DNA of 64,000 bases from Armatimonadota bacterium (GTDB lineage Bacteria > Armatimonadota > UBA5829 > DTJY01), in assembly GCA_025358205.1 (NCBI GenBank), contig JANYKG010000070.1:13748-77747 (forward strand). Direction: 5' to 3'. Below the pieces are notes generated by a model. It made no database searches and was not told the origin of the DNA. It saw nothing but the letters and a program-made list of their open reading frames with translations. Within the stretch, counting starts at the first letter, position 1. Each line of letters opens with the position of its first letter. Positions 1,989 through 63,256 of the stretch are shown here, piece after piece. The position numbers were made by a program, and so were the translations under genes.

Positions 1989-3345
1989 TTTCTATTTCCT
2001 CTCTGTCCATCACCTGCATAAACGCCTTCACCACTCTTGGATCAAACTGCGTGCCCGATCCGTATCGCAGTTCGTCAATGCCCTGGCCTTTGGTTTTCGG
2101 AACGCGGTACACTCGCTGGGTCTCTTCATCGGGACCGCCCACCATGGCATCGAAGGAGTCGGCCACTGCTATGACGGCCGCCTCAATCGAGAGGTCGTTC
2201 GCGCTCAGCCCGTCAGGATATCCCTTGCCGTCCGGTCGCTCGTGATGTCCGCGCACCCACGGCACAATTCGCTCGAAGTGCTTCATCTGCGCCAGTATCT
2301 CCGCGCCTCTGGCCGGGTGCTGTCTGATGGTATTCCAGTCATCGTCGCTGAGTTTGCCGGTATTGTCCAGTATCTCCTCGCTCACGCCCACTTTCCCGAT
2401 GTCATGCAGCAGGCCGGCTTCACGGATGAACATGAGGCTCTGATACGGCAACCCCATCTGTTTGGCTATCTTGTCAGACATGCTGGCTACTCGTTCCAGG
2501 TGGCCCTTGGTATACGCGTGGTAGTGCTGCATGTATGAGCCGAGGGTGGTGACTGTTTCCATATACGCGGCCATCTGCTCTGAGTACATGTTAAGCGCCT
2601 GCCGCCCCACGATGAACGGCACTATCATCATCAGCACCCCGTAGAAACCGAACTGCTTGTACAGCATGGCGAAAAGTATGCCCGACGGGGCTGTGACAAT
2701 GAAATTGGGTGCGAACCATCTTAGGCTTTGGAAGAATGAGAGTCGCCACGGGTCGCCGCTGTTCAGCGACAGGCCGGTGGTGAAGATGATGGCATTAGCA
2801 ACCGTGGACGCGATAATGGCAATGAAAAGCGGAATGAACATGGACGCCACCGCCACGTCCGGGCTGGCTTCTATGGTGTGTCCGCCCACAAAATAGTATA
2901 CCCAGCTCGCCACGCCGATAGGGATAGTACACATGGCAGTGTTGTAGCTGGACATATCAACCAGCCAGCGGAAGTTCTGCTTGCGATGGACTATCATAAC
3001 CCCGACGATGATGCTGAGAGGGGCAACGGTAAGCGCAGCCGGACTGCCGTGGCTTAGAAAGAGGCTCATGATGGCGGGAATCGTAACTGTTACGTCAATG
3101 TTGCTGCCGGGGATAGTGACGGGAAGCAGTTCGCCGACCAGAATGATGAGGAAAAAGAGCGCCAGTTCAGGGAGGTGGGGAAGCTCCTGTCCCATATGCG
3201 CCACGGCCCATACGAAGATGGCGAGACCGACGAGAAGGGTCAGGTTCTTATAGTAGACAAAAGCTTTTGCGAGTGGTCTCAATGCTTGCGCCCTACTCTG
3301 ATCTGCGTTATGCAGTTCCTGCACAATGCAGGGCCTTTTGAGCAT
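1966..3345 (-). CDS. 7TM receptor-linked HD-GYP phosphodiesterase (7TMR-HD)
   Basis: About 300 aa N-terminal polytopic membrane region, then LHDIGK...HHERPDGKGYPDG HD-GYP domain. Confidence 0.8.
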   Translation of the reverse strand: MLKRPCIVQELHNADQSRAQALRPLAKAFVYYKNLTLLVGLAIFVWAVAHMGQELPHLPELALFFLIILVGELLPVTIPGSNIDVTVTIPAIMSLFLSHGSPAALTVAPLSIIVGVMIVHRKQNFRWLVDMSSYNTAMCTIPIGVASWVYYFVGGHTIEASPDVAVASMFIPLFIAIIASTVANAIIFTTGLSLNSGDPWRLSFFQSLRWFAPNFIVTAPSGILFAMLYKQFGFYGVLMMIVPFIVGRQALNMYSEQMAAYMETVTTLGSYMQHYHAYTKGHLERVASMSDKIAKQMGLPYQSLMFIREAGLLHDIGKVGVSEEILDNTGKLSDDDWNTIRQHPARGAEILAQMKHFERIVPWVRGHHERPDGKGYPDGLSANDLSIEAAVIAVADSFDAMVGGPDEETQRVYRVPKTKGQGIDELRYGSGTQFDPRVVKAFMQVMDREEIENGRQHTS

Positions 3346-3380
3346 TATTGACGTTCTTCGTGAATAATGCGGGCTAATGG
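3331..3380. repeat. REP-like palindromic element, copy a (GAGCATTATTgacgttcttCGTGAATAATGCGGG)
   Basis: Same GCATTATTCA...TGAATAATGC hairpin unit recurs at 10 other loci. Confidence 0.75.
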
Positions 3381-3450
3381 GCCGACGACGGCAGCAGTCA
3401 CGTCAGATCGTAGCTACGTCAGACACACCGTCTGACGGATCTATTAAGAT

Positions 3451-3536
3451 CCTAGGGCGGTGGCCAATACTTCAGGAATGCGCCGGATGTCAGTGTCAGC
3501 GACGCGAGGGCAAGCAGTACTTTTACCAAGGTCTTC
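3451..3536 (-). CDS. possible small signal-peptide-like ORF (28 aa: MKTLVKVLLALASLTLTSGAFLKYWPPP)
   Basis: ATG preceded by AAAGGTG about 9 nt upstream. Hydrophobic core plus SGA cleavage-like site. Not in ORF track (too short). Confidence 0.2.
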
Positions 3537-3659
3537 ATGTTTGTCAACACCTTTCGTAGTGAGAATGGCGCCCACATCCGCTAGTCTGTGAACGTATCTC
3601 CGCTCCGCTCAGGGTTCGACTCATGACCTTTTTATGCTGCGCGTCGTCGGCCCAAACTA

Positions 3660-4319
3660 TTATTGCTCGCAGATCATACCCAGACGCCGATTAACGGCAT
3701 CCAGAGTGGCATTCACCACCGCCTTCCAAATATCCTGCTTCACTATGGCCGATCCGGTGAGTTGTTCCTCACCTTTCGGACCTATCATGTTTACGAATAC
3801 GACTACCACCGTGTGTCCAGACAGGTTTACCGCTGCGTTCAAGTCCTCCAGCACCAGAGCCACTTCTTCGCCGGCCTTACCCTCTATGGCTTTCAGAGTG
3901 GCGGACGCGATCAGCCTGAACTGGCTGTGGCTGGAACTGTGCCCTGTCGCCTGCCCTTCGAAAGAACTGCCGTTCATCCGCAGTCTGACCAGCGCCTCGG
4001 CCTGTGAGCCGTTCAGCGCTATAAATACGTCAGAGAGCTTCAGTCTGGCTGAGTCGGTAGACTTAGATTTCTCAGTTGATTTGCCGTTCTGGGTCTGCGC
4101 TATACTGACTTTCTTGTGATCCAACTCCAGGCCGAACTGCGCCTGGAGGGCTGATTCTACGTCACGGACTAACTGCTTCGGCGAGCGGCTAGCGTCGGTA
4201 AGAACGTGGATTTCCTGAATCTCGTTGCCCTTATCCGCTACCACCCGAGCCGAGTGAACACTTGTCAGAGAACATATCACCGACTCGATTTCCGCCGGTG
4301 ACGGTTTCTGTGCGCCCAT
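3660..4319 (-). CDS. hypothetical protein (possible Asp23/Gls24-like N-terminal region), co-oriented 20 nt downstream of pheT
   Basis: 219 aa ORF with no firm family assignment. Confidence 0.45.
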   Translation of the reverse strand: MGAQKPSPAEIESVICSLTSVHSARVVADKGNEIQEIHVLTDASRSPKQLVRDVESALQAQFGLELDHKKVSIAQTQNGKSTEKSKSTDSARLKLSDVFIALNGSQAEALVRLRMNGSSFEGQATGHSSSHSQFRLIASATLKAIEGKAGEEVALVLEDLNAAVNLSGHTVVVVFVNMIGPKGEEQLTGSAIVKQDIWKAVVNATLDAVNRRLGMICEQ

Positions 4320-4338
4320 TTTGAAACACCCCCCCGAG

Positions 4339-6369
4339 TTAGGTGTCCCTGAATGTCGCTCCGAGCTTAGAAGTAAGTAGGCCCCTGGTCTGAGTCATAC
4401 GCTCATCTACTTCTTCATCGCGCAGAGTGCGCTCATGGGACCTGAATACAATATTGAACGCTATGCTCTTTTGTCCGGCCTGCAACTGCGATCCCGAATA
4501 CAGGTCGAACAGCGCGAGGGTTTCCAGAAGTTCTCCGTATCCTTCCTTTAGAATCTCCAGAACCCGCCCATAGGGCACCTCATCTGCAACCACTACTGCC
4601 AGATCGCGGGTGACCGCCGGGTATCTCGATATCGGGGAGTAAACGGGGGCGCTAGCGGATTGCTCCATTAGCTCGTTAAGGTCCAACTCGAAGGCATAGG
4701 CGCGGCTGGGCATATCCGCCTTGCGCGTCCACTCCGGGCTGACTTCCCCGATCACTCCAATTCTCGCACCGCCAGCCTCTATTACAGCGGACCTTGTCGG
4801 GTGGAGGAAATCCACCGACTGCGGTATGAATCGGACATTGCACACGTTGAGCCTTTCGAGAAGATCCTCGACAATTCCTTTGCAGAGGAAGAAATCTGCC
4901 TGGAGTGATGAGCGATCCGTATTCCATGCCCTGCCCCAGAGACTTCCGGTCATCACGGTCCCTATGCTCAGCTTCTCAACTACCTGGCTGTCCTTCTGGG
5001 GCTCAAATATATGACCGATCTCGAAAATGCCTAAATCCTTCGTGCCTCTACTTGCATTATATAACGCTACATCCAGCAAGTCAAGGATTAACTGTGACCG
5101 AAGTTTGCTTAGTTCCTCGCTCATCGGATTGGTAAGCGACACCTGGTTAGAGCCTTCCGCCGGCGCGGTCATGGAACCGGTGACCACTTCCTGTAGCCCG
5201 GAGGACATGAGTATCTCCGCGCACCTGGATGCGAAGTCCGCCTCTGCGCTGTCTCGGCCCTGCATAGCCTCTCCTGCCAACGGTTTCTCTGGTATGCGCT
5301 CGTACCCGAAGATGCGCCCGACTTCCTCAATCAGGTCTTCTTCATATTCTACGTCCGGGCGGAATGTAGGCACGGTGACTTCCAGCACACTGCCTAGCTT
5401 TACGCTCATGCCCAACCGGGTGAGCGCATCGGCGACCTCTGCACTTGTCACGTCAAAGCCCAGTGCCATGCTTGTGCGCTCAGGCCGAACGCTGATGACT
5501 GCCGGCTCTACCGGCGCAGCGCATGAGTCCACCACACCTTGGGCTATCGTGCCGCCGCCGGCCTGTTGGATGAGTTCCGCCACACGGTCCAGCGCGAGGA
5601 TGGTGCCGTTCGGATCTACCCATCTCTCAAACCTGTATGACGCCTCCGTAGACATCTGCAGTGCGCGTGCGGTTCGGCGAATGGATAGCCGGTTGAAGTG
5701 AGCCGATTCCAGCAAGACATTCACGGTCTTCGCGCTGACCTCGGATTCCGCGCCGCCCATGACCCCGGCCACGGCTACCGCGCCCTTTGTGTCGGCTATG
5801 ACCATCATATCCGGGTTCAGTTCCCGCTCTTCGCCGTCAATGGTTGCCATCTTCTCGCCTGCCTCTGCCTGTCGCACGATGATCTTGTGATCGCCCAGCA
5901 GGTCGTAGTCAAACGCATGAAGCGGCTGCCCGAGTTCCAGCAGTACGTAGTTGGTGGCATCCACCACGCTGTTGATTGGGCGCATTCCGGCCGCAATGAG
6001 GCGAGTCTGCATCCATGCGGGCGAATCCACAACCTTTGTGTTCTGCACAAGCCTTGCGGAGTAGCGCGGGCAGTTGGCGCTCTTCAGGTCTACGCTCACG
6101 AAATCGCTTGTCTTGCCGCCCGATTCGGTAATCTTGGGCTGCGGATATCTAAACGCGGTGCCAAGAAGTGCGGAAACTTCTCTGGCAACCCCCGCCATGG
6201 AGAGCAGATCGGATCTGTCCGGCGTGACATATGTGGAGAAAACCTTCTGACCCTCCACTTCCTTGATGTCCTCGACCTCCAGGCCGGCCATCGTCAGCCT
6301 GTGCGCAAGCTCTTCGGCGGACAGGTCGAAGTCACAGTATTCTCTTAACCATTCAACGGGTACCAGCAT
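4339..6369 (-). CDS. pheT: phenylalanine--tRNA ligase beta subunit (short form lacking N-terminal OB tRNA-binding domain)
   Basis: MLVPVEWLREY...TMAGLEVEDI N-terminus, B3/4, B5 and catalytic-like domains. 676 aa versus about 800 typical. Confidence 0.9.
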   Translation of the reverse strand: MLVPVEWLREYCDFDLSAEELAHRLTMAGLEVEDIKEVEGQKVFSTYVTPDRSDLLSMAGVAREVSALLGTAFRYPQPKITESGGKTSDFVSVDLKSANCPRYSARLVQNTKVVDSPAWMQTRLIAAGMRPINSVVDATNYVLLELGQPLHAFDYDLLGDHKIIVRQAEAGEKMATIDGEERELNPDMMVIADTKGAVAVAGVMGGAESEVSAKTVNVLLESAHFNRLSIRRTARALQMSTEASYRFERWVDPNGTILALDRVAELIQQAGGGTIAQGVVDSCAAPVEPAVISVRPERTSMALGFDVTSAEVADALTRLGMSVKLGSVLEVTVPTFRPDVEYEEDLIEEVGRIFGYERIPEKPLAGEAMQGRDSAEADFASRCAEILMSSGLQEVVTGSMTAPAEGSNQVSLTNPMSEELSKLRSQLILDLLDVALYNASRGTKDLGIFEIGHIFEPQKDSQVVEKLSIGTVMTGSLWGRAWNTDRSSLQADFFLCKGIVEDLLERLNVCNVRFIPQSVDFLHPTRSAVIEAGGARIGVIGEVSPEWTRKADMPSRAYAFELDLNELMEQSASAPVYSPISRYPAVTRDLAVVVADEVPYGRVLEILKEGYGELLETLALFDLYSGSQLQAGQKSIAFNIVFRSHERTLRDEEVDERMTQTRGLLTSKLGATFRDT

Positions 6370-7456: not shown

Positions 7457-7486
7457 CCCGCCTGCCTTGTGTGTTCCGGCACTAAC

Positions 7487-7518
7487 GCGGATTATTCATG
7501 CTGTTCACGAATAATGCC
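7487..7518. repeat. REP-like palindromic element, copy b (degenerate)
   Basis: GGATTATTCATGctgttCACGAATAATGCC in the rplT-pheS spacer. Confidence 0.6.
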
Positions 7519-7545
7519 AGCTTTTCTATGGTACCGGTTAAGACA

Positions 7546-7615: not shown

Positions 7616-7639
7616 CGTCAAGTCTGCGCTATGCAACGA

Positions 7640-7999
7640 TCAGGCGCTCAGCGTTTCCTGCGCCTTCTTTACGAGTGCGGTGAATCCGGCAGCATCGTGA
7701 ACAGCCATGTCCGCGAGGATCTTGCGGTCAATCTCCACTCCGGCCTTGGTCAGACCTTCCATGAAGCGGCTGTACTGCATACCGTTCAGTCTGGATGCGG
7801 CGTTGATTCTGGCGATCCAGAGGCGGCGGAACTCCCGCTTGCGGTTGCGCCTGTCACGGTAAGCATACTGCAGCGCGTGCATGACGGCTTCGTTTGCTGT
7901 CTTGAACAGGTGACTTCTCGCTCCAAAGTAACCCTTGGCGCGGTCAATTATCTTTTTGTGACGCTTGTGCGTCATGATTCCACGTTTAACTCGTGGCAT
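7640..7999 (-). CDS. rplT: 50S ribosomal protein L20
   Basis: MPRVKRG...HKRHKKI... canonical bL20 sequence. Confidence 0.95.
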
Positions 8000-8265: not shown

Positions 8266-8385
8266 TCCCGATCCTTTCAAGACAACACTTGCCACTCATC
8301 ATCCGACTCCGCCTCGCCGCAGCGGACTTGCGCGGATGTATGGTGGCAATGTGCGGTGATTTCGTTATCTGTTATATCAAACCTA

Positions 8386-8468
8386 GCGCTGATTATGCAT
8401 GTTCCGCATAATCAGCGGCCTTCTGAGCATTATTCCTGCTTTTCATGAATAATGCGGGCTAACGCGGT
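8386..8468. repeat. REP-like composite element, copy c (two palindromic units)
   Basis: GCTGATTATGCatgttccGCATAATCAGC followed by GAGCATTATTCctgcttttcatGAATAATGCGGG, between infC and rpmI. Confidence 0.8.
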
Positions 8469-8474
8469 TACTGA

Positions 8475-8987
<513 letters not shown>

Positions 8988-9939: not shown

Positions 9940-9992
9940 ATGCAGCGGTAGTTGAGCCGCTGGTTCGCCGCGTCGGCGGTCTGCCCGGCAGT
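9935..9992 (-). pseudogene. degenerate fragment homologous to 3' end of the GH-like paralog genes (...NQRLNYRCIW...)
   Basis: About 70% nt identity to 13521-13580. Encodes a NYRCIW peptide in-frame, immediately after the WG-repeat gene stop. Confidence 0.45.
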
Positions 9993-12040
9993 CACCGAGG
10001 TCCTCTCGCAATGAAGCCGGACTTCCCGCCGAGCGTCACCCTGTCCAGGCCGTCCGAGAAAGGCTCCGCACGGTCGTACTGCAGCGGGATGACGACCTCG
10101 CCGGTGGTGTCTACAAAGCCGTATTTGCCATCGTTCTTCACCGGGGCCAGCCCTTCGGCGAAGGATATGGCGTCCTCATATTTCGCCGGGATGACCTCGC
10201 CGCAGCCCAAGCTTATGAATCCCCACTTATCATCCCTCTTGACCGCAGCCAGGCCCTCCTTGAAGATATCCACGCGCTGGTAATGCGGGGTGATCACTTC
10301 TATTCCATCCCGGCTGATGACGCCCCACTTGTCGCCCAGCATCACCGGAGCCAGGCCGCTTGCGAAGTCAAGCGCGCTGTCATAATGAAATGGGATGCAT
10401 ACACTCCCGGGCTTATATCCCGAATCGCCGCAGTGGATAAACCCCCATTTTCCGTTGAGCTTGGCTGCGGCTCTACCCCCGGCAGATGCGCTGAGTTGTT
10501 CGTACTTCGGCGCAACGACCTGCTTGCCGGTCTTGTCAATGATCCCCCACTTGCCGCCGGTCTTTGCCGCCGCAAGCCCCATGGAGAACTGGCCGATTCC
10601 CTGGTACTTCATCGGCACGACTAGCTTCCCTGTCTTGTTCACGACGCCATACTTGCCGCCGATGGCCACCCATGCAAGCCCTTGCGAGAACTCATAGCCG
10701 ACTGAGTCGTATCTCACGGGGACGACTGTCTTGCCCGTCTTATTGATGAAGCCCCACTTCTTACCCATCCGCACCGGCGCAAGGCCGTCCTTGAAAGGCA
10801 TGACGAAGTCGTACTTCGGAGCGATCGCCACCTTGTTCTTTTTGTCTATGAATCCCCATTTCCCGTTGATCTTGGCCCCCATCAGCCCTTCCTGGCAGAA
10901 CATGATCCCATCGTACTTCAGCGGGATCACCACATCGCCCAGTTCGGGAGTCGTGTGGAGAACCTCCACCTCGGGAGCATCGGAATGATCCGTGGGAGCG
11001 ATTGCCGGTGCGCGCCCGTCCCCCTTGGCAATGTAACCCCACTTGCCGCCGCTCTTCACAGGGGCCAGATCATACATGAAGGTGCCCGCGTCTTCGTACT
11101 TCAGAGGAATGACAACGGAACCCTTCTCATCAATGTAGCCCCACTTGCCGTTAAGCTCCACCGCGGCAAGCCCTCCGGAGAAGTTGCGCGCCCTGGAATA
11201 CTTCAGAGGAATGACTTCCTTCCCCTCCTTGTTGACATAGCCCTCAGTGCCCTCGGTGTAGCTTGCCACCGCGGCCAAGCCTTCGGAGAAGTTCTCGACA
11301 AGCTGGTACTTGGGCATGACAGCCCAGTTGCCGTCCTTGCCAACAAAACCCCATTTGTCGCCGACCTCGACCGCGGCCAGACCCTCCGAGAACTTGTGCG
11401 CGTCATCGTATATCAGACGAATGACCACGTCCCCGGTCTTGTCAATGAAGCCGTACTTCTGGTCCAGATTCACGGCAGCAAGACCTTCAGCGAACGGCGT
11501 GGCGCTCGTATATTTCTGGGTGATCACCTGGTTGCCGGCTTTGTCAATGAGCGTCCAGTGCTCGTCCAGCACCCAGGCCACCCCCTCTGTGAATGGCTGC
11601 GTGTCTGTGTACTTCGCCTCGATGACCTGCCGGCCCGCCATGTCAATATAGCCCCAACCACCGAACTCACCTTCGACCTCAGCGAGTCCGTCGGAGAATG
11701 ATTTTACCGATGAGTAGGTTTCGTGGACGGCATCCTTGCCGAAATCGTCCACAAAACTTGCGATATTGCCCGTCGTCACCCCTGCCACACCTTGGGAGAA
11801 GTCACACACTTCGCCATACTTGAGGGGGATGACGACCGAGCCGGTTTTGTCTATAAACCCCCATTTTCCGTCCATCTCTACGGCGGCGTATCCATCGGAT
11901 CCACCGCAGAAATCTCTGGCGTCCTCGTACTGGGCGGGGATGACGAGTTCTCCCGTTTCATAGGCGCTGGCAGGGGTCAGCGAAAGGATCCCCGCCGCGG
12001 CGAACAGTATCAGAGAAACAACTATGGATGGTCGTTGCAT
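9992..12040 (-). CDS. secreted WG-repeat (KWGFIDKTG) beta-propeller-like protein
   Basis: Signal peptide, then about 17 tandem repeats of about 35-40 aa containing (G/D)KWG(F/Y)ID and SEGLA(A/P)V. Confidence 0.8.
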   Translation of the reverse strand: MQRPSIVVSLILFAAAGILSLTPASAYETGELVIPAQYEDARDFCGGSDGYAAVEMDGKWGFIDKTGSVVIPLKYGEVCDFSQGVAGVTTGNIASFVDDFGKDAVHETYSSVKSFSDGLAEVEGEFGGWGYIDMAGRQVIEAKYTDTQPFTEGVAWVLDEHWTLIDKAGNQVITQKYTSATPFAEGLAAVNLDQKYGFIDKTGDVVIRLIYDDAHKFSEGLAAVEVGDKWGFVGKDGNWAVMPKYQLVENFSEGLAAVASYTEGTEGYVNKEGKEVIPLKYSRARNFSGGLAAVELNGKWGYIDEKGSVVIPLKYEDAGTFMYDLAPVKSGGKWGYIAKGDGRAPAIAPTDHSDAPEVEVLHTTPELGDVVIPLKYDGIMFCQEGLMGAKINGKWGFIDKKNKVAIAPKYDFVMPFKDGLAPVRMGKKWGFINKTGKTVVPVRYDSVGYEFSQGLAWVAIGGKYGVVNKTGKLVVPMKYQGIGQFSMGLAAAKTGGKWGIIDKTGKQVVAPKYEQLSASAGGRAAAKLNGKWGFIHCGDSGYKPGSVCIPFHYDSALDFASGLAPVMLGDKWGVISRDGIEVITPHYQRVDIFKEGLAAVKRDDKWGFISLGCGEVIPAKYEDAISFAEGLAPVKNDGKYGFVDTTGEVVIPLQYDRAEPFSDGLDRVTLGGKSGFIARGPR

Positions 12041-12330: not shown

Positions 12331-12331
12331 C

Positions 12332-50356: not shown

Positions 50357-50357
50357 T

Positions 50358-50430: not shown

Positions 50431-50454
50431 AGGAAAGGATAAGAGGAGAACATT

Positions 50455-52131: not shown

Positions 52132-52137
52132 ATTTGG

Positions 52138-52210
52138 CCCGCATTATTCACAAACAACGTGAATAATGCTCTGAAGGCCCTGGATTATTCGCTTCATGAA
52201 TAATCCAGGC
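52138..52210. repeat. REP-like element, copy j
   Basis: CCGCATTATTCACaaacaaCGTGAATAATGC...CTGGATTATTCGCTTCATGAATAATCCAGG. Confidence 0.85.
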
Positions 52211-54162: not shown

Positions 54163-54246
54163 ATCATTGAGAGTTTACAATTCTGTTTGGGTAGACTTGA
54201 CATGCATCCGTCTACGACCGATAATGAATACGGAGTTGCATGTGAT

Positions 54247-54414
54247 ATGAGGAGATACAAGCTGTCCGAACTGCAGACAGAACTGCGTGCGAAAGGTATC
54301 CCCGCGCTAGCGCAGAGGCTCAAGAAGGAGTCGGGATACGACGCTCGTGCGCGCAAACTGCGCCGCAACCCCGGTGAGATAAAGGCGGCCGATGATGCCC
54401 GACGGCCCGAATGA
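54247..54414 (+). CDS. small basic protein (55 aa) upstream partner of NTase
   Basis: MRRYKLSELQTELRAKGIPALAQRLKK... Overlaps the NTase start. Confidence 0.4.
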   Translation: MRRYKLSELQTELRAKGIPALAQRLKKESGYDARARKLRRNPGEIKAADDARRPE

Positions 54415-55018: not shown

Positions 55019-55142
55019 TATAGTTCGGCTGTTCCAGCCGCCCCTCTCCGCTGACGGCTGAGAGCTGATGGCTAGAGGCTATCCCCGGTATAATTACCAG
55101 TTTTTCCATGAATTCTCATCTGATGAGAGTGCAGGCTATTGA

Positions 55143-55171
55143 CATTCCATACAACCAGGCGTAATCTGTGT
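55143..55171 (+). promoter_or_regulatory. sigma70-like promoter TTGACA-N17-TAATCT upstream of PEP-CTERM gene
   Basis: AT-rich 250-nt spacer. Hairpin GGCTTCgcagAAGCC lies before the GAAGGAG RBS. Confidence 0.35.
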
Positions 55172-55268
55172 TTGATGCCCATTGAGGTATTACAGGCTAG
55201 GCAAGGTATTACCCAGGGTTTTTACATTTTAATTACATGGCTTCGCAGAAGCCGAAAGAAGGAGAAGG

Positions 55269-55892
55269 ATGAAGAATGCAGCGTTGATGATCTTCGTACT
55301 GGTTCTTAGCTGCATGATCTCAGCTAAGGCATCCACATTCACGGTCAACAGCAGAGCACTGGACGGTTCAAACACGCCGCACTTCGTGACATATACTGCT
55401 TCCTGCCTGGGGATGTACGAGTTTGACGTGTCGGGTACCTACCAGTATACCCTCAGCACAAGCACCTATTGGGCAGATGCAGGGTGGGCTACGCTAGACA
55501 GCTGGGCAACAATCACACCCAAGGTTGATGGCACACCCCGCCAAGATACACCGATCGATCCCGCTTTGCCTACTCCGGCTGGTATACTGATGTTGTGGTT
55601 TAGCGATGGTAGCGAAAACTTCCACGAGTGGGGTGAATATTCGTCATCGCATACCTACTCTACGCATAGAACACTGACCGCAGGCCAGCAACTCACTTTC
55701 TGGATATCAGACTGGTATCCCTACAGTGCAACTGACTACCAACGCTCATATGGGCCGCAGTGCTATGCGGATAACTCTGGCTTCCTCACCGTTAGTGTAG
55801 CGGTTGAAGCGGTACCCGAGCCGTCATCCTTCGTTGCCCTGGGTGCGCTGGTGGTGCCACTACTAGCGCGCAGCCGGTGCAGAAAGCACTAA
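55269..55892 (+). CDS. PEP-CTERM sorting-domain secreted protein
   Basis: Signal peptide. C-terminal VPEPSSFVALGALVVPLLARSRCRKH (PEP motif, TM, basic tail). GC is lower than its surroundings. Confidence 0.75.
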   Translation: MKNAALMIFVLVLSCMISAKASTFTVNSRALDGSNTPHFVTYTASCLGMYEFDVSGTYQYTLSTSTYWADAGWATLDSWATITPKVDGTPRQDTPIDPALPTPAGILMLWFSDGSENFHEWGEYSSSHTYSTHRTLTAGQQLTFWISDWYPYSATDYQRSYGPQCYADNSGFLTVSVAVEAVPEPSSFVALGALVVPLLARSRCRKH

Positions 55893-55929
55893 CACCCTGT
55901 TCGCTACGCGCAAGAGGAGTAATTTCTCC

Positions 55930-56229
55930 GTGTGCAGGGCTATTCTAAAGAATGGAGACGCGATAAGGATGAGCAATTGGCCAGACAGCATAGTGTCATA
56001 CATTGACCTCATAGGAATACGCGCACAGGTAGACAGCGGGACTACCAGAGCCTCTAATACAATGCGGAGGATGCATCAGTGTGTGGCTGACGCGACAAGA
56101 AAAATGCAACGGCACAATTACGTTTACCTGCTAAACGATTGCGTGTTGCTCATGGCACCTGTCGATACAGGTGAGGACTACAGATTGGTGATGAGCGAGC
56201 TGAGTGATCTCAAGGGGTGTGTCAAGTAA
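55930..56229 (+). pseudogene. 5' fragment of a gene (class III nucleotidyl cyclase-like?) truncated by IS256 insertion
   Basis: Last codons (GCVK*) are read from the IS left inverted repeat. No in-frame continuation beyond the IS right end. Confidence 0.45.
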
Positions 56230-57547
56230 ACTGTGCTTCTGCCCTCACCGGTCGTGTCAGGCAACGACGTGTTTGACCCGGTCCGGGAAGAACACCGCCA
56301 GTTGCGCCAGTATCTGCCCCCAGTTGGGCACCCGCATCGTCCACTTGCGGGTCACGTCCTGCGTCACAAGATAGAGCATCTTCAGCAGCGCATCATCGGT
56401 CGGAAAGATGCTCTTTCCTTTTGTCACCTTCCGAAGCTGCCGGTGGTAGCTCTCGATCAGGTTGGTCGTGTAGATGATCTTCCTAATCTCCGGCGGGTAG
56501 GCAAAGAAGGTCGCTATCTCCGCCCAGTTCCTCCGCCAGGACTCTACGATATACGGGTACTTCTTGCCCCATTCCGCCGCAAATAGATCAAGCTCAGCTA
56601 GTGCCACTTCCTCAGACGGGGCGGTGTATACCTTCTTCAGGTCAACCGTCACCTTCTTTACGTCCTTGTAGGAGACGTACCGTATCGAGTTCCTGACCTG
56701 GTGCACGATGCACTTCTGTATCTCGGTCTTCGGGAACGCCGCCGAGATCGCTTCGCTGAACCCAGAGAGATTGTCCACACTTACGATCAGTATGTCCGCC
56801 ATCCCACGGTTCTTCATCTCTGAAAGCACCGACAGCCAGAACTTGGCCGACTCGCTCTCGCCGATGTATATGCCCAGCACATCCTTCCTGCCCTCAAGGT
56901 CGATCCCGATCACCATGTAGGCCGCTTTGCTCTTGATCTGGCCGTTGTCTCTCACCTTGTAGTGAATGGCATCCAGGAATACGAACGCGTACACCTCTTC
57001 AAGCGGCCGGCTCTGCCACTCGTGAATCAGCGGCATGATCTTATCCGTGATGTTGCTGATGAGCCCAGGCGAGACGTCTATGCCGTAGAGCTCGTGGAGG
57101 TAGTCCTGTATCTCCCTGGTGCTCACGCCTTTCGCGTAGAGGGCTATGATCTGCTCCTCGATCTTCGAGATATTCCTCTCGCGCTTCTTTACGATCAGGG
57201 GATCAAAGTCGCATTCCCGATCACGGGGGACTTCTATATCCACCTCTCCGTGGCTCGTGCGCAGTGTCTTCGTGCCGTGACCGTTCCTGCGGTTCTCCGT
57301 CTTCTTGTTCTCGGAATCGTTCTTCTCGTAGCCGAGATGGTGATCCATCTCAGCCTCAAGCATCGCCTGGATCGTCTCGCCGAAGAGATCCTTCAGCGTC
57401 TCGTGGATATCCTCGACAGTCTTGATGTTCCGTTCCCTAATCAGTTCCTTGATCTGTTCTCTGCTCAGTAGTGCCATGTTGCGCTTTCTGTCCTTTCCTT
57501 CGTAAGTATATCCTACGACCGAAGGTTAGGCAAAAGCACACTTCATT
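56217..57547 (-). mobile_element. IS256-family insertion sequence (transposase CDS 56257..57477)
   Basis: 406 aa Transposase_mut (IS256) protein. Imperfect terminal IRs GTGTGTCAAGTAAACTGTGCTTCTGCC (left) and GTGTGTAGAATGAAGTGTGCTTTTGCC (right, revcomp). Confidence 0.85.
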
Positions 57548-57638
57548 CTACACACTCTATGGCACTCTATCGGCCCGAGAAAATCCAAGAATCAGCTAGC
57601 GAAGTGAGATATTCAGAATGTCCTCAGAAGCCACAAGG

Positions 57639-58619
57639 CTACTCACTGATAGCTCTTCTCTCTGATTTCTTCTTGTTATGGTAGGCATCATGGCAGAACG
57701 TAGAACAATACTTCGCGGAACGCTTCTTCAGTTCTCCTTGTGACGATGCTTCGGCCTTTTCCCAACCTACCTCAAAATCGTTTCCGCAGTTAGGGCACGT
57801 CTTGAACTCACGCTGTCCGGTCACAGCTTGGGCGAACTGAAGCCACATAGCACCCAAGAGGTTGGTTGGGATAATGTGTAGTTCCAGACCACCGTCTGCT
57901 CGGCTGACAATACCGGCTCTTGTATTGCCCTTACGCAACTCCATCACATTCTCTGCCTTGTTGAAGGATACCGAGGTATCGTCAAGATGTTTGTTCACTA
58001 TCTGCACTAGACACGCTCTCGCAAGAGGGAGAATCTGCCTTGTGTCATAGGCAGGACGAAGATGCGAGTTTCTTAGAAGGTTCAAGTCCACAAAACAGTC
58101 TTCGTTCGCATATCCATAGTCAACGTGACAACTCAGGCGGCGAGGCTCGTCAGACGGGCCAAGACGTACTATGTCCTTGAGTTTGCTCATGTCCTTCTGC
58201 TCAACAGCACTATGAAAAGCATAGACCGCCGCCATGTGCTCTGATTCATTCCTCCAGTCGTCAAGGAGTTCTACCACTACCCTTTGTCCTGTCTGGTCAC
58301 GCATGAGCAATTCACCTTGGCGGCTCGGAAACCACGGCGGCAGTTTGTTTCCCTCAGTCAAGGTCATTGCCGCAAACCTACCAAGATTGCCATACACACG
58401 GGCAAAGGCGAAAATGGTGTTCACGTCCGGCGGAACCTGCCGACTGCCAACCTTCGCGAACTTTTTGAATAGAGTAGGTTCATCTCTCATCGGTTCATAG
58501 GTTTTCTTTGGCGAAGAATGAAACACGATTCCGCACGTTTCATTGCCCTTCACCAAACCTTTGACCAAGGCGCAATCCTCAAGCACATACTGCACGAACT
58601 CAACGGACAAGGCTACCAC
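57639..58619 (-). CDS. hypothetical protein with C-terminal zinc-ribbon (CPNCG...CSTFCHDAYH)
   Basis: 326 aa, lower GC, lies in the island. Confidence 0.45.
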   Translation of the reverse strand: MVALSVEFVQYVLEDCALVKGLVKGNETCGIVFHSSPKKTYEPMRDEPTLFKKFAKVGSRQVPPDVNTIFAFARVYGNLGRFAAMTLTEGNKLPPWFPSRQGELLMRDQTGQRVVVELLDDWRNESEHMAAVYAFHSAVEQKDMSKLKDIVRLGPSDEPRRLSCHVDYGYANEDCFVDLNLLRNSHLRPAYDTRQILPLARACLVQIVNKHLDDTSVSFNKAENVMELRKGNTRAGIVSRADGGLELHIIPTNLLGAMWLQFAQAVTGQREFKTCPNCGNDFEVGWEKAEASSQGELKKRSAKYCSTFCHDAYHNKKKSERRAISE

Positions 58620-58735
58620 CTGCTTTCACTCACTGAAAAATCTGGAAGATACACGGAATCACAACGCTAACCGTGTAGACATAGCGTAACACGAATGATA
58701 CACTTAGGGCAAGTACAAACAAACGGAGGTGCCTT

Positions 58736-58933
58736 ATGGTACAGAACAATCTCACTGTTAGTGTGCCCGAAGCTGGGCGTTTGCTTGGCATAGGTAGGAA
58801 CCTGAGCTATCGTCTTGCACAGGAGGGCAAACTGCCGATCTTGCGATGTGGTAAGAGGGTTCGCGTGTCCTTGTCCGCACTTGAACGTATGATTGACAAT
58901 TGTGGACAGCTAAGAACAGAGGCGAAGAAATGA
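58736..58933 (+). CDS. AlpA/Xis-like helix-turn-helix DNA-binding protein
   Basis: 65 aa. VPEAGRLLGIGRNLSYRLAQEGKLPILRCGKRVRV HTH_17-like. Confidence 0.6.
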   Translation: MVQNNLTVSVPEAGRLLGIGRNLSYRLAQEGKLPILRCGKRVRVSLSALERMIDNCGQLRTEAKK

Positions 58934-59466
58934 GAGCGGTAATGCAAAATAGCGGAGTCGCAGGCTTTGACGGGCGCGGCGGCTCCGCTATGGGACAGGC
59001 GAAGAGCTTCGCGAAAAACTCATCACCAGTTCATTATACCACACCAAGGCCGGGCGTCAAGCCTGAGCGGACGGGTTGGCGCGATGAAGCTCTATCCGCA
59101 AGGCATCGGCTGTATGGCTGTGATGCTCCAATGGTGGATGTTGACTTCCTGTGCTGTGAGTATGACTCCGGCATTCCCTGTGCGATCATCGAATACAAGG
59201 CTTCGCGGCCTTTCTGTATTGACCGAATGCACGCAAGTTATCGGGTACTCCGCCGCTTGTCTGATTCGGTCCGCGTACCGTTCGCGGTAGTCTTCTACAA
59301 TCCTACCGTATGGCGGTTCACGGTCTACCCTATGAATGACTATGCAGAAGCATGGTTCGAAGAAGGCGAAGAACTCTCTGAGCGTGAGTATGTCACACGG
59401 CTGTATCAGATACGCGGGCGAGAACTGCCGCATTATGTTGCGGATGCACTGGAGGTCACGCCATGA
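58930..59466 (+). CDS. hypothetical protein with PD-(D/E)XK-like motif
   Basis: VDVDF...IIEYK spacing compatible with a restriction-endonuclease-like fold. Start taken at MRAVMQ. Confidence 0.35.
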   Translation: MRAVMQNSGVAGFDGRGGSAMGQAKSFAKNSSPVHYTTPRPGVKPERTGWRDEALSARHRLYGCDAPMVDVDFLCCEYDSGIPCAIIEYKASRPFCIDRMHASYRVLRRLSDSVRVPFAVVFYNPTVWRFTVYPMNDYAEAWFEEGEELSEREYVTRLYQIRGRELPHYVADALEVTP

Positions 59467-61967
59467 AGCTTGAGGATCTCCTCCAACTTCTTGACTCACC
59501 AAAGCAGAGCGGTAAGGAGTGGGTAGCACGCTGTCCGGCTCATGATGATAGCAAGGCTTCGCTCAGTGTCACGGAGTCCGATGATGGAAGCAGAATACTC
59601 CTGAAGTGCTTCGCCGGTTGCGAAACTACCGCCATTGTGCAGGCTCTTGGTATCAAGATGCACGATCTATTCACGAAGTCGAAACCTGCCATACTGGAAC
59701 AATCGGAGAACAACCGAGTAGTTGCGGAATATGGATACACCGATGCAGGCGGCTCTTTGCTGTATCAGGTTGTGCGGTATGAACCGAAGGACTTCAGGCA
59801 GAGACAACCGGACGGGAAGGGCGGTTGGTCTTGGAACATGAAGGGCGTTAAGCGAGTCCTATACCGGCTTGTGCAAGTCAATTCGGCGATTGCGGCGGGT
59901 ATGCCTGTCTTCATTGTGGAAGGAGAGAAGGACGTTCATTCCCTGGAGTCCATCGGTCTGACTGCTACCACAAACGCAGGCGGCGCGGCGAAATGGGAAG
60001 CACGCTTCTCGGACTCACTCCAGGGCGCGGATGTTATCATACTGCCGGACAATGACGGCCCGGGCAGGAAACACGCGGAATTAGTTGCTAATGCCCTGTG
60101 CGGCATAGCGAAGAGTGTGCGAGTGTTAGAACTGCCCGGGCTATCGGAGAAGGGAGATGTATCAGACTGGTTAGCGGCAGGCGGAACAGAGGAAGACCTT
60201 CTATCGCTGGTAGAAGCGGCGTCCGAGTGGATACCGACGGCGGCAGAGCAGTGCGAGCATGCGGAGATACCGGGTAGTGCATCGGACGGATACCCGCTCA
60301 CCGATCTCGGCAATGCTGAGCGGCTGATAGCGTGTCATGGTAAAGACCTGCGTTACCATGTGGAAGCGGGCGTATGGCTTGTTTGGAACGGCAAGCAGTG
60401 GGTATCGGACTGCACAGGGCAGGTAGACTTACTCGCACGCGGCGTAGTACGCGGCATGTATGATCTGCTGAAGGAGTGCCGGACAACGGCGGAGAGTGAA
60501 GCTCTCTTCCGGCATATCAGAAGCTCTGAATCCAAGAGCAAGCTTGACGCTATGGTGACGCTTGCAACGAAGTGCGAAGGCATACCCGTGCAGAGTTGCG
60601 ATCTGGACTCAGACAACTGGCTTCTGAACTGCGAGAACGGCACGGTAGACCTTCGGACGGAAAAGCTCAGACCTCACAGGCCGGAAGACCTGCTCACCAA
60701 GCTCTCACCAGTGGTATACGATACGGCGGCGAAGTGTGAGCGGTGGGAACGGTTCCTGCGCGAAGTCTTTCCGGGCGGTGAAGAGAACCATGAATCAGCG
60801 GATGAAGAGCTTGCCGGCTTTGTACGGCGTATGTGTGGATACCTGCTCACGGGCGATACGGGAGAGCAGTGCTTCTTCCTGCTCACGGGCAAAGGCTCCA
60901 ATGGGAAAAGCGTGCTTGTGAATACGCTTATTCACATACTTGGTGACTATGCCAAAGGCACGCCGGTTACAACGTTCCTGGAGAAGCGCGGAGAGAATAG
61001 CTCAGACCTGGCTTCACTTGTTGGAGCGCGGATTGTCACGGCGTCCGAAAGTGAAGGTACGACTTCCTTCAATGAGTCCCTTCTGAAACAGCTTACCGGG
61101 CAGGACGGCATAACGGCGCGGCACTTGTACCAGAACTACTTCACGTTCAAGCCTACGTTTCGGGTGATATTCGCAACGAACGAGGTTCCGCGTATCAAGT
61201 CTCAGAACTACGCCATTAAGCGGAGAGTCAAGCTCTTACCGTTTCGGACGAAGTTCTACTATCCGCACGAACAGAAGTTCCCTGTGCGTGACGAAAGGCT
61301 TACCGACACGCTGAAGGCAGAGGCTTCCGGCATACTGGCTTGGTGTATTCGCGGGTGCGGCGAATGGCAGAAGGAAGGGCTTGGTATGCCCGATGTGATA
61401 CAGGCAGAGGTGGATTCGCTCTTTGAGAATATGGATGTTCTGCTAGACTTCATCGAAGAGGAGTGTGAGATTCATCCACGGTACAGAGTTGAAACCGGCG
61501 AACTGTGGAAGGCGTATCAGGCATGGTGTGAAGCATCCAAGACCAAGCCTGTATTCAAGCGTGCTTCTGACTTCTCACGGAACTTGACCGGCAGGGACAA
61601 TATCGAGAATACTCGCGGCGGTAAGGGTATCCGGTATATCACCGGAATCGGCTTACTTGGCGGTGAATCACGCTCAAAGGTGACGCCGGGTGACGCCAAA
61701 ACGGCTTTTTCGGGAACTCTCCCATATGAGCATAATCCAAAACACTTTCCAGAAAACGCGAATTCGCGTCACCCGGCGTCACCCTACGAGGAAAACGGCG
61801 AAGAAGATAGCGGCGTAGTGGATGACTCAAAGCCGAAATATGACCCGGTAAAGGGTGAATGTTCACACTGTGGAAAGACCTGCAACTTCAAGGCAGGCGG
61901 TGAGTATGCCTGTCCTACATGCATCACGCGGTATACTCCAAGCACGGAAGGAAATGGTAGAATATGA
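59463..61967 (+). CDS. P4-type primase-helicase (Zn-ribbon + TOPRIM primase + D5_N + SF3 helicase)
   Basis: CPAHDD...LKCFAGC zinc ribbon. TOPRIM VFIVEGEKD...ILPDNDGPG. Walker A LTGKGSNGKS. 834 aa. Confidence 0.8.
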   Translation: MKLEDLLQLLDSPKQSGKEWVARCPAHDDSKASLSVTESDDGSRILLKCFAGCETTAIVQALGIKMHDLFTKSKPAILEQSENNRVVAEYGYTDAGGSLLYQVVRYEPKDFRQRQPDGKGGWSWNMKGVKRVLYRLVQVNSAIAAGMPVFIVEGEKDVHSLESIGLTATTNAGGAAKWEARFSDSLQGADVIILPDNDGPGRKHAELVANALCGIAKSVRVLELPGLSEKGDVSDWLAAGGTEEDLLSLVEAASEWIPTAAEQCEHAEIPGSASDGYPLTDLGNAERLIACHGKDLRYHVEAGVWLVWNGKQWVSDCTGQVDLLARGVVRGMYDLLKECRTTAESEALFRHIRSSESKSKLDAMVTLATKCEGIPVQSCDLDSDNWLLNCENGTVDLRTEKLRPHRPEDLLTKLSPVVYDTAAKCERWERFLREVFPGGEENHESADEELAGFVRRMCGYLLTGDTGEQCFFLLTGKGSNGKSVLVNTLIHILGDYAKGTPVTTFLEKRGENSSDLASLVGARIVTASESEGTTSFNESLLKQLTGQDGITARHLYQNYFTFKPTFRVIFATNEVPRIKSQNYAIKRRVKLLPFRTKFYYPHEQKFPVRDERLTDTLKAEASGILAWCIRGCGEWQKEGLGMPDVIQAEVDSLFENMDVLLDFIEEECEIHPRYRVETGELWKAYQAWCEASKTKPVFKRASDFSRNLTGRDNIENTRGGKGIRYITGIGLLGGESRSKVTPGDAKTAFSGTLPYEHNPKHFPENANSRHPASPYEENGEEDSGVVDDSKPKYDPVKGECSHCGKTCNFKAGGEYACPTCITRYTPSTEGNGRI

Positions 61968-62449
61968 CAGAGAAGCACGAAAAACGATATGCCCGGGCAA
62001 TCATCGGACTACTAGAGAAGCCTACCGTGTCAGAGGCGGCGCGGTATGCAGAGGTATCGGAAACAACGCTTTACCGATGGATGAATGATACGGGCTTCCA
62101 GATGCTCTACAGAGCGGCAAGGCGTGACATTGTGAAGCAAGCTGTGGCACGGCTCCAGCGGGCTTGTTCCCGTGCGGTGGATACCTTGCAGGACGTTATG
62201 GAAGACAGCGAGTCTTCTGCATCGGCCCGGGTGACGGCGGCGAAGACGGTGATGGAAATGGCATTCAAAGCGGTAGAGCTTGAAGACCTGGAAGAGCGGG
62301 TAACTGCGCTGGAAGGATTGGGTGATCTTGCGGCCCGGGTGGACGTGCAGGACGTTCCCGAGTTGTCACACTACACAACAGAAGAGCTTTCACAGATAAG
62401 GGCTATACATGAGACAGCAGACGCTCGAAGGGATTCGGCGAGAGGATGA
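61964..62449 (+). CDS. HTH-domain protein of mobile element (terminase-small/regulator-like)
   Basis: EAARYAEVSETTLYRWM HTH. Overlaps the primase stop. Confidence 0.45.
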   Translation: MTEKHEKRYARAIIGLLEKPTVSEAARYAEVSETTLYRWMNDTGFQMLYRAARRDIVKQAVARLQRACSRAVDTLQDVMEDSESSASARVTAAKTVMEMAFKAVELEDLEERVTALEGLGDLAARVDVQDVPELSHYTTEELSQIRAIHETADARRDSARG

Positions 62450-62675
62450 AGAGGCTATGACAATGAAGCTAAGGCGAAGGGTAGAAGAACTGGAGAGACA
62501 GGCGTCGGTAAAGCCTTGCGACCGTGGTATCCACCTGCACGAGGGATGGAAGAATCCGCGTACTGACTGCCGGATATGCAAAGCCATGAGTGAAGAAGAA
62601 TACGCGGCCTATCTGGAGCATGGTGACGGGCGTATGGTTATTGAGATTGTGGAACAAGTTGCACGTGCTGATTAG
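62409..62675 (+). CDS. small hypothetical protein
   Basis: 88 aa. Possible Cys pair (CDRG...CRIC). Confidence 0.3.
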   Translation: MRQQTLEGIRREDEEAMTMKLRRRVEELERQASVKPCDRGIHLHEGWKNPRTDCRICKAMSEEEYAAYLEHGDGRMVIEIVEQVARAD

Positions 62676-62702
62676 CCTGCCGAATCTGCATGATTGAAGG
62701 GC

Positions 62703-62731
62703 TTGACTACCTCACAGGGTTCGGCTATAAT
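62703..62731 (+). promoter_or_regulatory. consensus sigma70 promoter TTGACT-N17-TATAAT upstream of tRNA cluster
   Basis: Perfect -10, near-perfect -35, 17-nt spacer, about 135 nt before tRNA-Leu. Confidence 0.5.
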
Positions 62732-62868
62732 GTGCAAGACAGGACGACACAAGATAGTACGAACCAAGTGCGGTAAGGTGTGAAAACAGAACCTTACTTG
62801 GTATGAGCGAACAAGGGAAAAAGCCGAAAATCGTGCTCAGAAGTGTGGAAAACCTGTTGCCGAAACGC

Positions 62869-62955
62869 GGGGATGTGGCGGAATGGCAGACGCGCTTGGT
62901 TGAGGGCCAAGTGAGCTTAACGCTCGTAAGAGTTCAAATCTCTTCATCCCCACCA
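62869..62955 (+). tRNA. tRNA-Leu (anticodon GAG), type II with long variable arm, CCA encoded
   Basis: Acceptor GGGGATG/CATCCCC. Anticodon stem CTTGG/CCAAG, loop TTGAGGG. T-loop TTCAAAT. Confidence 0.85.
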
Positions 62956-63000
62956 GCTTCCACAATTCGGATTTCGGATTGCGGAATTCGGAGTTTGTTT
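62951..63000. repeat. heptamer-periodic repeat AATTCGGA/TTTCGGA/TTGCGGA/ATTCGGA between tRNA-Leu and tRNA-Val
   Basis: Same NNNCGGA 7-nt periodicity as at 40711, 45492 and 63081. Confidence 0.7.
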
Positions 63001-63002
63001 GT

Positions 63003-63077
63003 CGGGCGATTGGCTCAGCGGGAGAGCACTGCCTTCACACGGCAGGGGTCACTGGTTCGAATCCAGTATCGCCCACC
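63003..63077 (+). tRNA. tRNA-Val (anticodon CAC)
   Basis: Acceptor GGGCGAT/ATCGCCC. Anticodon loop TTCACAC. T-loop TTCGAAT. Confidence 0.85.
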
Positions 63078-63129
63078 ATTTCCAATTCGGAATGCGGAGT
63101 TCGGATTGCGGAATGCAGAGTGGTTTCTT

Positions 63130-63204
63130 GCGGGAGTAGTTCAGCGGTAGAGCACCTGCTTCCCAAGCAGGTTGTCGCGGGTTCGAATCCCGTCTCCCGC
63201 TCCA
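63130..63204 (+). tRNA. tRNA-Gly (anticodon CCC)
   Basis: Acceptor GCGGGAG/CTCCCGC. Anticodon stem CCTGC/GCAGG, loop TTCCCAA. Confidence 0.85.
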
Positions 63205-63228
63205 TTTTTGGTTCGGGCAGAAGTTGGT

Positions 63229-63256
63229 CCGCATTATTCACTTCATGAATAATCGA
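63229..63256. repeat. REP-like element, copy k (single palindromic unit) between tRNA-Gly and tRNA-Cys
   Basis: CCGCATTATTCACTTCATGAATAATCG. Confidence 0.7.

Follow-up and report, generated by a model that had tools for sequence, protein, structure and literature searches.

Among MITEs, miniature transposable elements with inverted repeats, the Correia elements (CREE/NEMIS) of Neisseria are an abundant orphan family with inverted-repeat ends and a duplicated TA; they are co-transcribed with neighboring genes and fold into RNA hairpins. MITEPsy1 of Pseudomonas syringae, a MITE derived from the IS5 family, inserts at CTAG or YTAA with duplication of 4 nt (PMC3189936), and IS5 duplicates CTAG (PMC10379815). 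The palindrome-associated transposable elements (PATEs) of Haloquadratum, derived from IS200/IS605, lack a transposase, can be as small as 52 bp, carry two near-terminal palindromes and vary between strains (PMC3119063). Here we analyze a family of intergenic twin-hairpin repeats in 64,000 nt of contig JANYKG010000070.1 from an Armatimonadota bacterium (‘the window’, meaning this whole stretch). An earlier sequence-only reading of the window had called these repeats REP/MITE-like (REP, repetitive extragenic palindromic). We conclude that they are probably non-autonomous MITEs that insert at YTAR, duplicate 4 bp and are mobilized in trans by a transposase encoded elsewhere.

Twin-hairpin doublets in the window

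The repeating unit is a doublet of 71–72 bp in which hairpin A, variable in sequence and with a 5-nt loop (left arm CC-TGGATTATTCA, right arm TGAATAATCCA-GG), is joined by a 9-nt linker, GCCTTCWGA, to hairpin B (GCATTATTCA, a loop of 8–9 nt, and TGAATAATGC-GGR). The outer arms of A and B agree as inverted repeats at 10–11 of 13 positions and form imperfect 13-bp terminal inverted repeats, CC(C/T)G(C/G)(A/T)TTATTC(A/G). Each terminus is also paired with an adjacent inner inverted copy, which yields two local hairpins, and RNA folding predicts two adjacent hairpins per doublet (−26 to −38 kcal/mol, z −4.9 to −7.1). The single hairpins, 31–38 nt long, are each bordered by YTAG, and most element ends are bordered by YTAG-like 4-mers. 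A twin-hairpin build of 72 bp is unusual for a MITE. Across 35 copies, hairpin B is nearly invariant, and hairpin A keeps its pairing through two-sided changes at 9 of 13 pairs, with 90% of cells paired versus 29–40% when the partners are slid.

The family itself is confirmed. In the 64-kb window, TGAATAATCCAGG and TGAATAATGCGGG have 17 and 18 matches, respectively, at two or fewer mismatches; the expectation from dinucleotide shuffles is about 1.0 and 1.4 matches, and the observed numbers were not reached in any of 100 shuffles. Direct reading of the sequence reveals hairpins at all 11 coordinates given by the sequence-only reading, and a profile hidden Markov model trained on 35 copies from this and related families, together with half-profiles for A and B, recovers those 11 loci and no others. 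The hairpin family is therefore real, correctly located and completely listed for the window. It comprises nine full doublets and three derivatives (Table 1), none of which is coding: no open reading frame (ORF) is contained in the 71–72-bp copies or in the 31–45-bp derivatives. The earlier reading would have abandoned the family had its copies failed to align; all 12 align with one another. Its claims of both orientations and of high density also hold, at about one per 5.8 kb.

Several details of that description change, however. Hairpins were said to occur alone or concatenated, and the hairpins stand, but the repeat unit is the doublet rather than a free-standing single hairpin. The motif GAGCATTATTCA takes in two linker bases, and the variant CGGATTATGC is a form of hairpin A with concerted changes in its two arms. 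Site 3331 is real but is the middle of a full copy (3302–3373) whose A hairpin had been overlooked, whereas the sites at 45332, 7487 and 63229 are present as an internal-deletion copy (45332) and two hybrid solo hairpins. Finally, site 38324, with its ‘four units’, holds two doublets that have one CTAG in common.

Matched flanks and recent insertion

Relatives of the window family provide the clearest view of how these elements insert. An exact-pattern scan for hairpin B, covering one genome per species, found at least 29 hairpin B blocks on at least 21 contigs of the Armatimonadota metagenome-assembled genome (MAG) JBBRAE01. Three unclassified MAGs also contribute several copies to the matches listed, and Nitrospira and Bacteroidota/Bacteroidales MAGs contribute single copies with YTAR flanks. 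The Armatimonadota MAG has the same doublet with another hairpin A (GCTTTATTCG/CGAATAAAGC), a scan of JGI metagenome contigs uncovered a third family (hairpin A CTGCATTATGCG/CGCATAATGCAG), and nhmmer searches with consensus sequences detect one family from another. Judged from these sequences, the doublet family is old and dispersed, and it spans lineages. Within the reach of the data, homologues on so many contigs of another genome argue for a dispersed family, as the sequence-only reading had supposed, and against local duplication.

In the Armatimonadota family, the left 4-mer is repeated directly as the right 4-mer in 27 of 35 copies; permuting the flanks gives a mean of 13.0, and none of 20,000 permutations reaches 27. 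Identical direct 4-mers border 8 of 16 copies of the JGI family (mean 3.25, p=0.003), and the inverted combination (for example, TTAG with CTAA) is found in no copy of either family. Rare flanks are matched as well: ATAG/ATAG, CTAT/CTAT, CTTA/CTTA and, twice, CTAA/CTAA. Copies flanked by TTAG, CTAG or other 4-mers are mixed in both internal subfamilies and are always matched. Because flank types are mixed in each subfamily, inheritance of the flanks from a master copy is unlikely. Matched flanks of this kind are what a 4-bp duplication of a YTAR-like target site leaves behind. Duplication of TA alone, as in IS630/mariner-like elements, was considered and rejected, because the base that precedes the left TA varies together with the one that precedes the right TA, and the latter TA is nearly always followed by G. 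Of the ‘REP/MITE-like’ label, then, the MITE part stands, whereas the REP part, with its implied REP-associated tyrosine transposase (RAYT), is not supported, given the matched 4-bp direct repeats of the sister families. In the window, identical flanks border one of seven full copies, and most copies agree at two or three of four positions; these copies would have arrived as those of the sister families did, their flanks decaying after insertion.

Matched 4-mers on both sides could also be left by a site-specific recombinase or another non-DDE enzyme (IS110-like, serine or tyrosine) that crosses over in a 4-bp YTAR core without making a true duplication. If the junction carried the core, flanks would be expected to follow the subfamily, and they do so in part, CTAG accompanying mostly AGG and TTAG mostly GGG. 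In addition, the Armatimonadota copies all face the asymmetric TTAG in one orientation (20 TTAG versus 0 CTAA). Three IMG/VR loci (L125 at 303, L131 at 3173 and L132 at 5824) contain a junction-like sequence, AATAATGCGGGGGTTAGCCCGCATTATTCA, in which a right-end-like arm meets a left end across one TTAG, an arrangement that resembles a tandem pair or a circle junction. Nevertheless, no recombinase of this kind is seen near any copy, the rare flanks CTAT, CTTA and ATAG look like variable targets and thus more like the loose preference of a transposase, and the known precedents for a 4-bp CTAG/YTAA pattern, IS5 and MITEPsy1, depend on DDE enzymes. We consider recombination at a core very unlikely.

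The putative targets are scarce in the window. CTAG occurs 47 times versus 241 expected from base composition, TTAG 58 versus 187 and CTAA 53 versus 186, so that each is three- to fivefold rarer than expected. TTAA is also depleted (43 versus 144 expected), and a noticeable share of the remaining CTAGs are element flanks. Across families, 22 of 59 copies have a flanking 4-mer that supplies an ORF of 80 amino acids or more with its stop codon. Tandem copies with exactly one common 4-mer are present in the window (38395–38398) and at two related loci (L090 and L117).

A JGI contig about 95% identical to the window (L098), which spans infC–rpmI–rplT–pheS, allows filled and empty sites to be compared. 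It lacks both the doublet at 8387–8458 and the solo hairpin at 7486–7520, and immediately past the rplT stop codon, a position empty in the window, it carries an extra doublet of 72 bp. These three gains or losses within 1.3 kb of a conserved operon indicate that the elements moved recently and bear out the earlier suggestion of a lineage-associated mobile repeat. The alleles at 8386 differ in length by exactly 76 bp (72 + 4), the filled one being the longer, and once the 72-bp element is taken out of the window at 8387 together with one 4-mer, the remainder aligns to L098 without gaps, with 76 of 84 positions identical. The same removal at the rplT-stop site leaves one 1-nt gap, with a single TCAG in the empty allele and CCAG...TCAG in the filled one. 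Where the window and L098 differ by substitution, the changes are concentrated in the roughly 12 nt next to the insertion junctions (8370–8475 and 7620–7650), in otherwise near-identical surroundings, and may be excision footprints or the result of local mutagenesis.

Short-read contigs of the same strain are 100% identical to the window and mostly end at doublets or at a second repeat (45543). Thus, the doublet family explains assembly breaks every few kilobases in this uncultured lineage, just as it explains ORF calls that extend into spacers and intergenic differences between near-identical strains. The second repeat is a 62-bp inverted pair, 45543–45604 (+) and 48228–48289 (−), about 90% identical and with the first 28 nt the same, that brackets a Fer4 gene, the doublet at 46511, an HtrA-like protease gene and a 142-amino-acid ORF. 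Same-strain contigs break at 45547, which suggests further copies of this repeat elsewhere in the genome.

How the elements may move

We propose that a transposase from elsewhere in the genome, a DDE enzyme of the IS5 type or one of similar behavior, binds the outer arms, that it places the element in one of the rare YTAR tetranucleotides, and that these 4 bp are duplicated in the process. The target would often be a TAG or TAA stop codon with its preceding base. Insertion there would keep the stop codon and cost the host little, which would account for intergenic positions at gene ends. Every insertion would also create two new YTAR sites at its borders, and because these are fresh targets, later copies could land alongside to give the tandem pairs with one common 4-mer. 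The doublet itself may have formed when two solo hairpins fused at a common target. If so, the family would show neatly how a transposon can target a tetranucleotide that the genome otherwise avoids and keeps mainly as stop codons, a choice that steers insertions to harmless gene ends and lets copies stack on the duplicated target.

The gene for the partner transposase would be expected between YTAR-CCCGCATTATTC...GAATAATGCGGG-YTAR or, in degenerate form, between ends of the type YTAR-CC(C/T)GCATTATTC...GAATAATGC(G/A)GG-YTAR. Scans for lone arms and a BLAST search of plasmids with the doublet gave no autonomous insertion sequence (IS) candidate. Two pattern scans of IMG/VR likewise gave no autonomous IS, yielding only a 234-bp element with ends CCCGCATTATTCATGAACG, CTAG on both sides and a perfect 38-nt internal inverted repeat (3300015264_000082; L130, 802–1043). 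This element is a longer, non-autonomous relative of the doublets. Because CCCGCATTATTCATGAACG bounds it, the outer arm behaves as a transposon end that needs no adjacent partner. In the Armatimonadota MAG (JBBRAE010000002, L006 2126–2927), a HicA/HicB-like toxin–antitoxin pair lies between two inverted doublets and could form a composite mobile unit with them. A literature search with the sequence strings returned primer matches only.

Some matches proved to be something else. Those in Streptomyces (L004, L012, L016, L020 and about 20 further loci) represent one orthologous operator-like site and not the doublet family; there, a 28-bp palindrome, GCATTATTCATCRYRTGATGAATAATGC, whose 10-nt arms are those of hairpin B, stands between a TTGACG box and the apparent start of an ABC-transporter ATPase, and is probably an unrelated repressor operator matched by chance. 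One locus from the metagenome scan (L107) is also a chance match. Xer/dif sites and integron attC sites were set aside by reasoning only: the arm orientation is the reverse of that in dif, and many copies have GCTAG rather than GTTRRRY.

Several observations weigh against a DDE-type MITE. In the window and the 133 related loci that we fetched, there is no autonomous element with the family ends and no inverted-repeat pair of 0.7–3 kb with such ends, and phmmer with E. coli IS5 InsH finds no match in the fetched loci. For a DDE synaptic complex, 72 bp is a very short length, as are the 31–38 bp of the solo hairpins. Hairpin A has kept its pairing by compensatory change while its outer arm drifts from that of B, a pattern that fits structure-dependent recognition of a single strand and not binding of double-stranded ends. 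The duplication evidence comes from the sister families and two filled/empty comparisons with imperfect flanks, the window offers a single full copy with identical flanks, and solo B hairpins elsewhere have direct and inverted flanks equally often (3 versus 3). In addition, the model leaves unexplained the fixed TTAG polarity of the Armatimonadota family and the substitutions clustered at junctions, and it does not predict the orientation bias of the window copies described below.

Some of these observations would suit a single-stranded DNA element of the REP/REPIN or PATE type, with a RAYT or an IS200/IS605 TnpA as the HUH tyrosine transposase that moves it. One hairpin would then mark the left end for recognition and the other the right end, the left YTAG being the target/cleavage tetranucleotide and the right YTAG the element's own cleavage site. 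Two stable sub-terminal hairpins in so tiny an element recall the ‘terminal-only’ 52-bp PATEs (PMC3119063), a conserved tetranucleotide stands at the foot of each hairpin, compensatory upkeep of hairpin A suits structure-specific recognition, and neither the window nor the fetched loci yielded a DDE partner. The orientation bias relative to gene direction, which is itself confounded with GC skew, would fit lagging-strand targeting. Such enzymes make no duplication, however, and flanks should not co-vary; yet they are identical at the frequencies given above in both sister families, with rare pairs inside one subfamily, and at 8386 the filled allele exceeds the empty one by 4 bp more than the element itself. 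Moreover, the two outer arms form an inverted-repeat pair, a relation not required of IS200/IS605 ends.

The enzyme search speaks to the same alternative. The sequence-only reading had proposed looking for an associated RAYT, and none was found in the window or the 133 fetched loci. This search combined an HUH...Y regular expression with phmmer on six-frame ORFs, the queries being E. coli RAYT and the protein of locus L059. No Y1_Tnp lies in the window or adjoins any copy, and only L059 itself scored. That locus (4760–5760, MAG CAZCHS010000150) encodes an IS200-like Y1 transposase (Y1_Tnp, 9.7e-8), but a different repeat of about 130 bp stands on both sides of it. In the same AT-rich genome, hairpin B is fused to other modules, for example as GGAAACGTATCGGCGCGAAGCGG-hairpin B. 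Neither hairpin A nor hairpin B was seen in an IS605-type element. Movement by an HUH enzyme strikes us as unlikely.

We give a similarly small chance to a further reading, in which hairpin B and its YTAR flanks are a portable module of an uncharacterized transposase or recombinase family that recognizes folded ends (cruciform or single-stranded) and leaves matched 4-bp flanks. This would fit the occurrence of hairpin B in Armatimonadota, Nitrospira, Bacteroidota/Bacteroidales and unclassified MAGs alike. If true, few known transposable units would be as small as the 31–38-bp solo hairpins and 72-bp doublets, which would be moved by a mechanism that is neither that of a classical DDE MITE nor that of a REP/RAYT system. 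More generally, the very small size of these elements would be mechanistically interesting should the cognate enzyme prove unusual. A MITE mobilized in trans is still the reading we favor, and the gene context of its copies is considered next.

Gene context and comparison with described systems

The elements are essentially intergenic and close to gene ends. That they lie always between genes, as had been claimed, is nearly right: a flanking TAG is the stop codon of two genes, and a TetR-family ORF enters one copy. Eight of nine window elements in co-directional gene strings are oriented so that mRNA would read B and then A, and nine of ten have the same orientation relative to transcription when L098 is included. 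In the Armatimonadota family, by crude gene calls, the split is 10 versus 5, a much weaker bias. Near 46 kb, gene direction and GC skew flip together, so that the effects of transcription and replication are inseparable in the window.

Table 1 Hairpin elements of the window, with their flanking 4-mers and sites.
Coordinates	Strand	Element	Hairpins and folding	Flanks	Site
3302–3373	+	Full 72-bp doublet	A diverged (CTGCGTTATGCA/TGCACAATGCAG); B 3342–3371; full-profile E=2.9e-18	CTGA (3298–3301), CTAA (3374–3377)	Between HD-domain gene and LeuA_dimer-like gene, both −
7486–7520	−	Solo hybrid hairpin, 35 bp	B-like arm and loop, A-variant arm	CTAA, CTTT	rplT–pheS spacer
8387–8458	+	Full 72-bp doublet	A variant GCTGATTATGC/GCATAATCAGC	CTAG (8383–8386), CTAA (8459–8462)	infC–rpmI spacer
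26014–26085	+	72-bp doublet	A left arm degenerate	CTCA, CTAT	Between TetR-family and HlyD-like genes; TetR ORF reads 29 nt in and ends inside
38324–38394	+	71-bp doublet, best-conserved window type	−35.5 kcal/mol, z −6.7	CTAG (38320–38323), CTAG (38395–38398, common to next copy)	Upstream of hpf-like gene
38399–38470	+	Second doublet	A variant CGCGGATTATGC/GCATAATCCGCG; B diverged (GCATTGTTCA/TGAGCAATGC)		Abuts 38324–38394 via CTAG
42641–42712	+	72-bp doublet		CTCT, CTAT	CTA at 42713–42715 is the TAG stop of nuoD (−)
45331–45375	−	45-bp deletion derivative	Intact B and outer tip of A (GCAGG); A interior lost	CTGG, CTAA	Upstream of nuoA; only copy reversed relative to transcription
46511–46582	+	72-bp doublet		CCAG, CCTG	Divergent spacer, Fer4 gene (−) and HtrA-like protease gene (+)
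50357–50428	−	72-bp doublet	−38.4 kcal/mol, z −7.1	ATAG (50353–50356), CTAG (50429–50432)	27 nt upstream of next ATG; left flank holds TAG stop of ArsR-like gene (50354–50356)
52138–52209	−	72-bp doublet		TTGG, CTAG	Between SdpI-like gene and hydrolase gene
63228–63258	−	Hybrid solo hairpin, 31 bp	B outer arm, A loop, A right arm; looks like a deletion between two ATTATTCA arms	TTGG, TTAG	tRNA-Gly/tRNA-Cys spacer

These contexts bear on whether the hairpins are kept mainly for a host RNA function, as protectors of mRNA 3′ ends, RNase III or other processing sites in operons, or translational insulators, with mobility only their mode of arrival. The doublets fold strongly, most copies lie in co-directional gene strings directly past stop codons and share their orientation to transcription, and element bodies are better conserved than flanks. 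In the window copies, G–U-compatible mismatches favor the transcribed strand 12 to 5, although this asymmetry is not significant. By contrast, gain and loss of copies at the same conserved operon between close relatives shows them to be individually dispensable, the orientation bias fades in the Armatimonadota family, palindromes fold alike in either orientation, and conservation of hairpin B in sequence across phyla points to recognition by a protein. The terminator role that had been suggested is not borne out, as no copy has a T-run and a terminator scan of 37–54 kb called none, the stems being followed by GGCTAG or the linker. We consider an RNA function improbable as the main explanation; as a layer added to a MITE, it is possible.

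Of the copy at 8387–8458, the sequence-only reading noted that it sits in the spacer that normally holds the L20-dependent regulatory structure. At the gathering threshold, Rfam identifies only tRNAs in the window and no L20 leader, and because the spacer of L098 is without the element, the window copy is an insertion in the infC–rpmI spacer and not a regulatory structure. The copy is also dispensable in L098, since the same infC–rpmI–rplT operon exists there without it. Neither replacement of nor an effect on an L20 structure is therefore supported.

Pfam confirms infC (8475–8987), rplT (7640–7999), pheS, pheT, nuoA–D (42713–45337) and hpf, and the identity of rpmI comes from a gene call on the related contig. 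Immediately upstream of a methyltransferase gene and the infC operon, 9992–12040 (−) encodes a 682-amino-acid protein with 17 WG-containing repeats of the beta-propeller type (Pfam WG_beta_rep, E=7.5e-178). The window's proteins are singletons at 90% identity, and the sole synteny is a four-gene block, at 30–46% identity, in common with the Armatimonadota MAG.

The only transposase gene in the window (56257–57477) belongs to the IS256 family, which duplicates 8–9 bp, and was rejected as a partner, its ends (GGGGTGTGTCAAG...) being unrelated to the doublet. This IS256/Mutator-family IS, with ends near 56214 and 57558, sits in a block of lower GC content (0.525–0.55) at 54000–63400, together with a D5_N/DUF5906 primase–helicase-like gene (59463–61967) and a gene for a small HTH protein (61964–62449). 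The block abuts a tRNA-Leu/Val/Gly/Cys cluster (62869–63341) and is probably an integrated mobile element.

Among described systems, MITEPsy1 is the closest in behavior. Like it, the doublets are small and non-coding, have terminal inverted repeats and a 4-nt duplication, would be moved in trans and are polymorphic between strains. MITEPsy1 differs in its length of 100 nt, its 18-nt ends matching ISPsy2 and its lack of twin hairpins, whereas the window family measures 72 bp, has ends that begin CC... with an inner inverted copy beside each, and has no known parent IS. The doublets have the general features of MITEs, being short, non-coding, multi-copy sequences with terminal inverted repeats and insertion polymorphism. 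A target-site duplication is evident in the sister families and in one filled/empty pair (72 + 4 bp), and the flanks CTAG, TTAG, CTAA, ATAG, CTAT and CTTA fit the CTAG/YTAR duplication of MITEs derived from the IS5 family. Correia elements are further removed, at 100–155 bp with 26-bp ends, a 2-bp duplication and a single long hairpin.

The REP, BIME and REPIN elements of Enterobacteria and Pseudomonas look similar in other ways. They too are imperfect palindromes of 30–40 nt, single or clustered, intergenic, dense and lineage-specific, with a conserved tetranucleotide by the stem and strong RNA hairpins that could protect mRNA 3′ ends. The window hairpins share the palindrome of 20–40 nt and the adjacent tetranucleotide, but REPs make no target duplication and accompany a RAYT gene that they flank, and in a REPIN two inverted REPs form one long hairpin, whereas here there are two hairpins of different sequence. 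PATEs, by definition, are without terminal inverted repeats or duplication, and their palindromes match resident IS605-type transposons; the window family, by contrast, has terminal inverted repeats and the signature of a duplication. The combination of REP-like twin hairpins with MITE-like duplication illustrates that a ‘palindromic intergenic repeat’ is not by itself a sign of a RAYT system.

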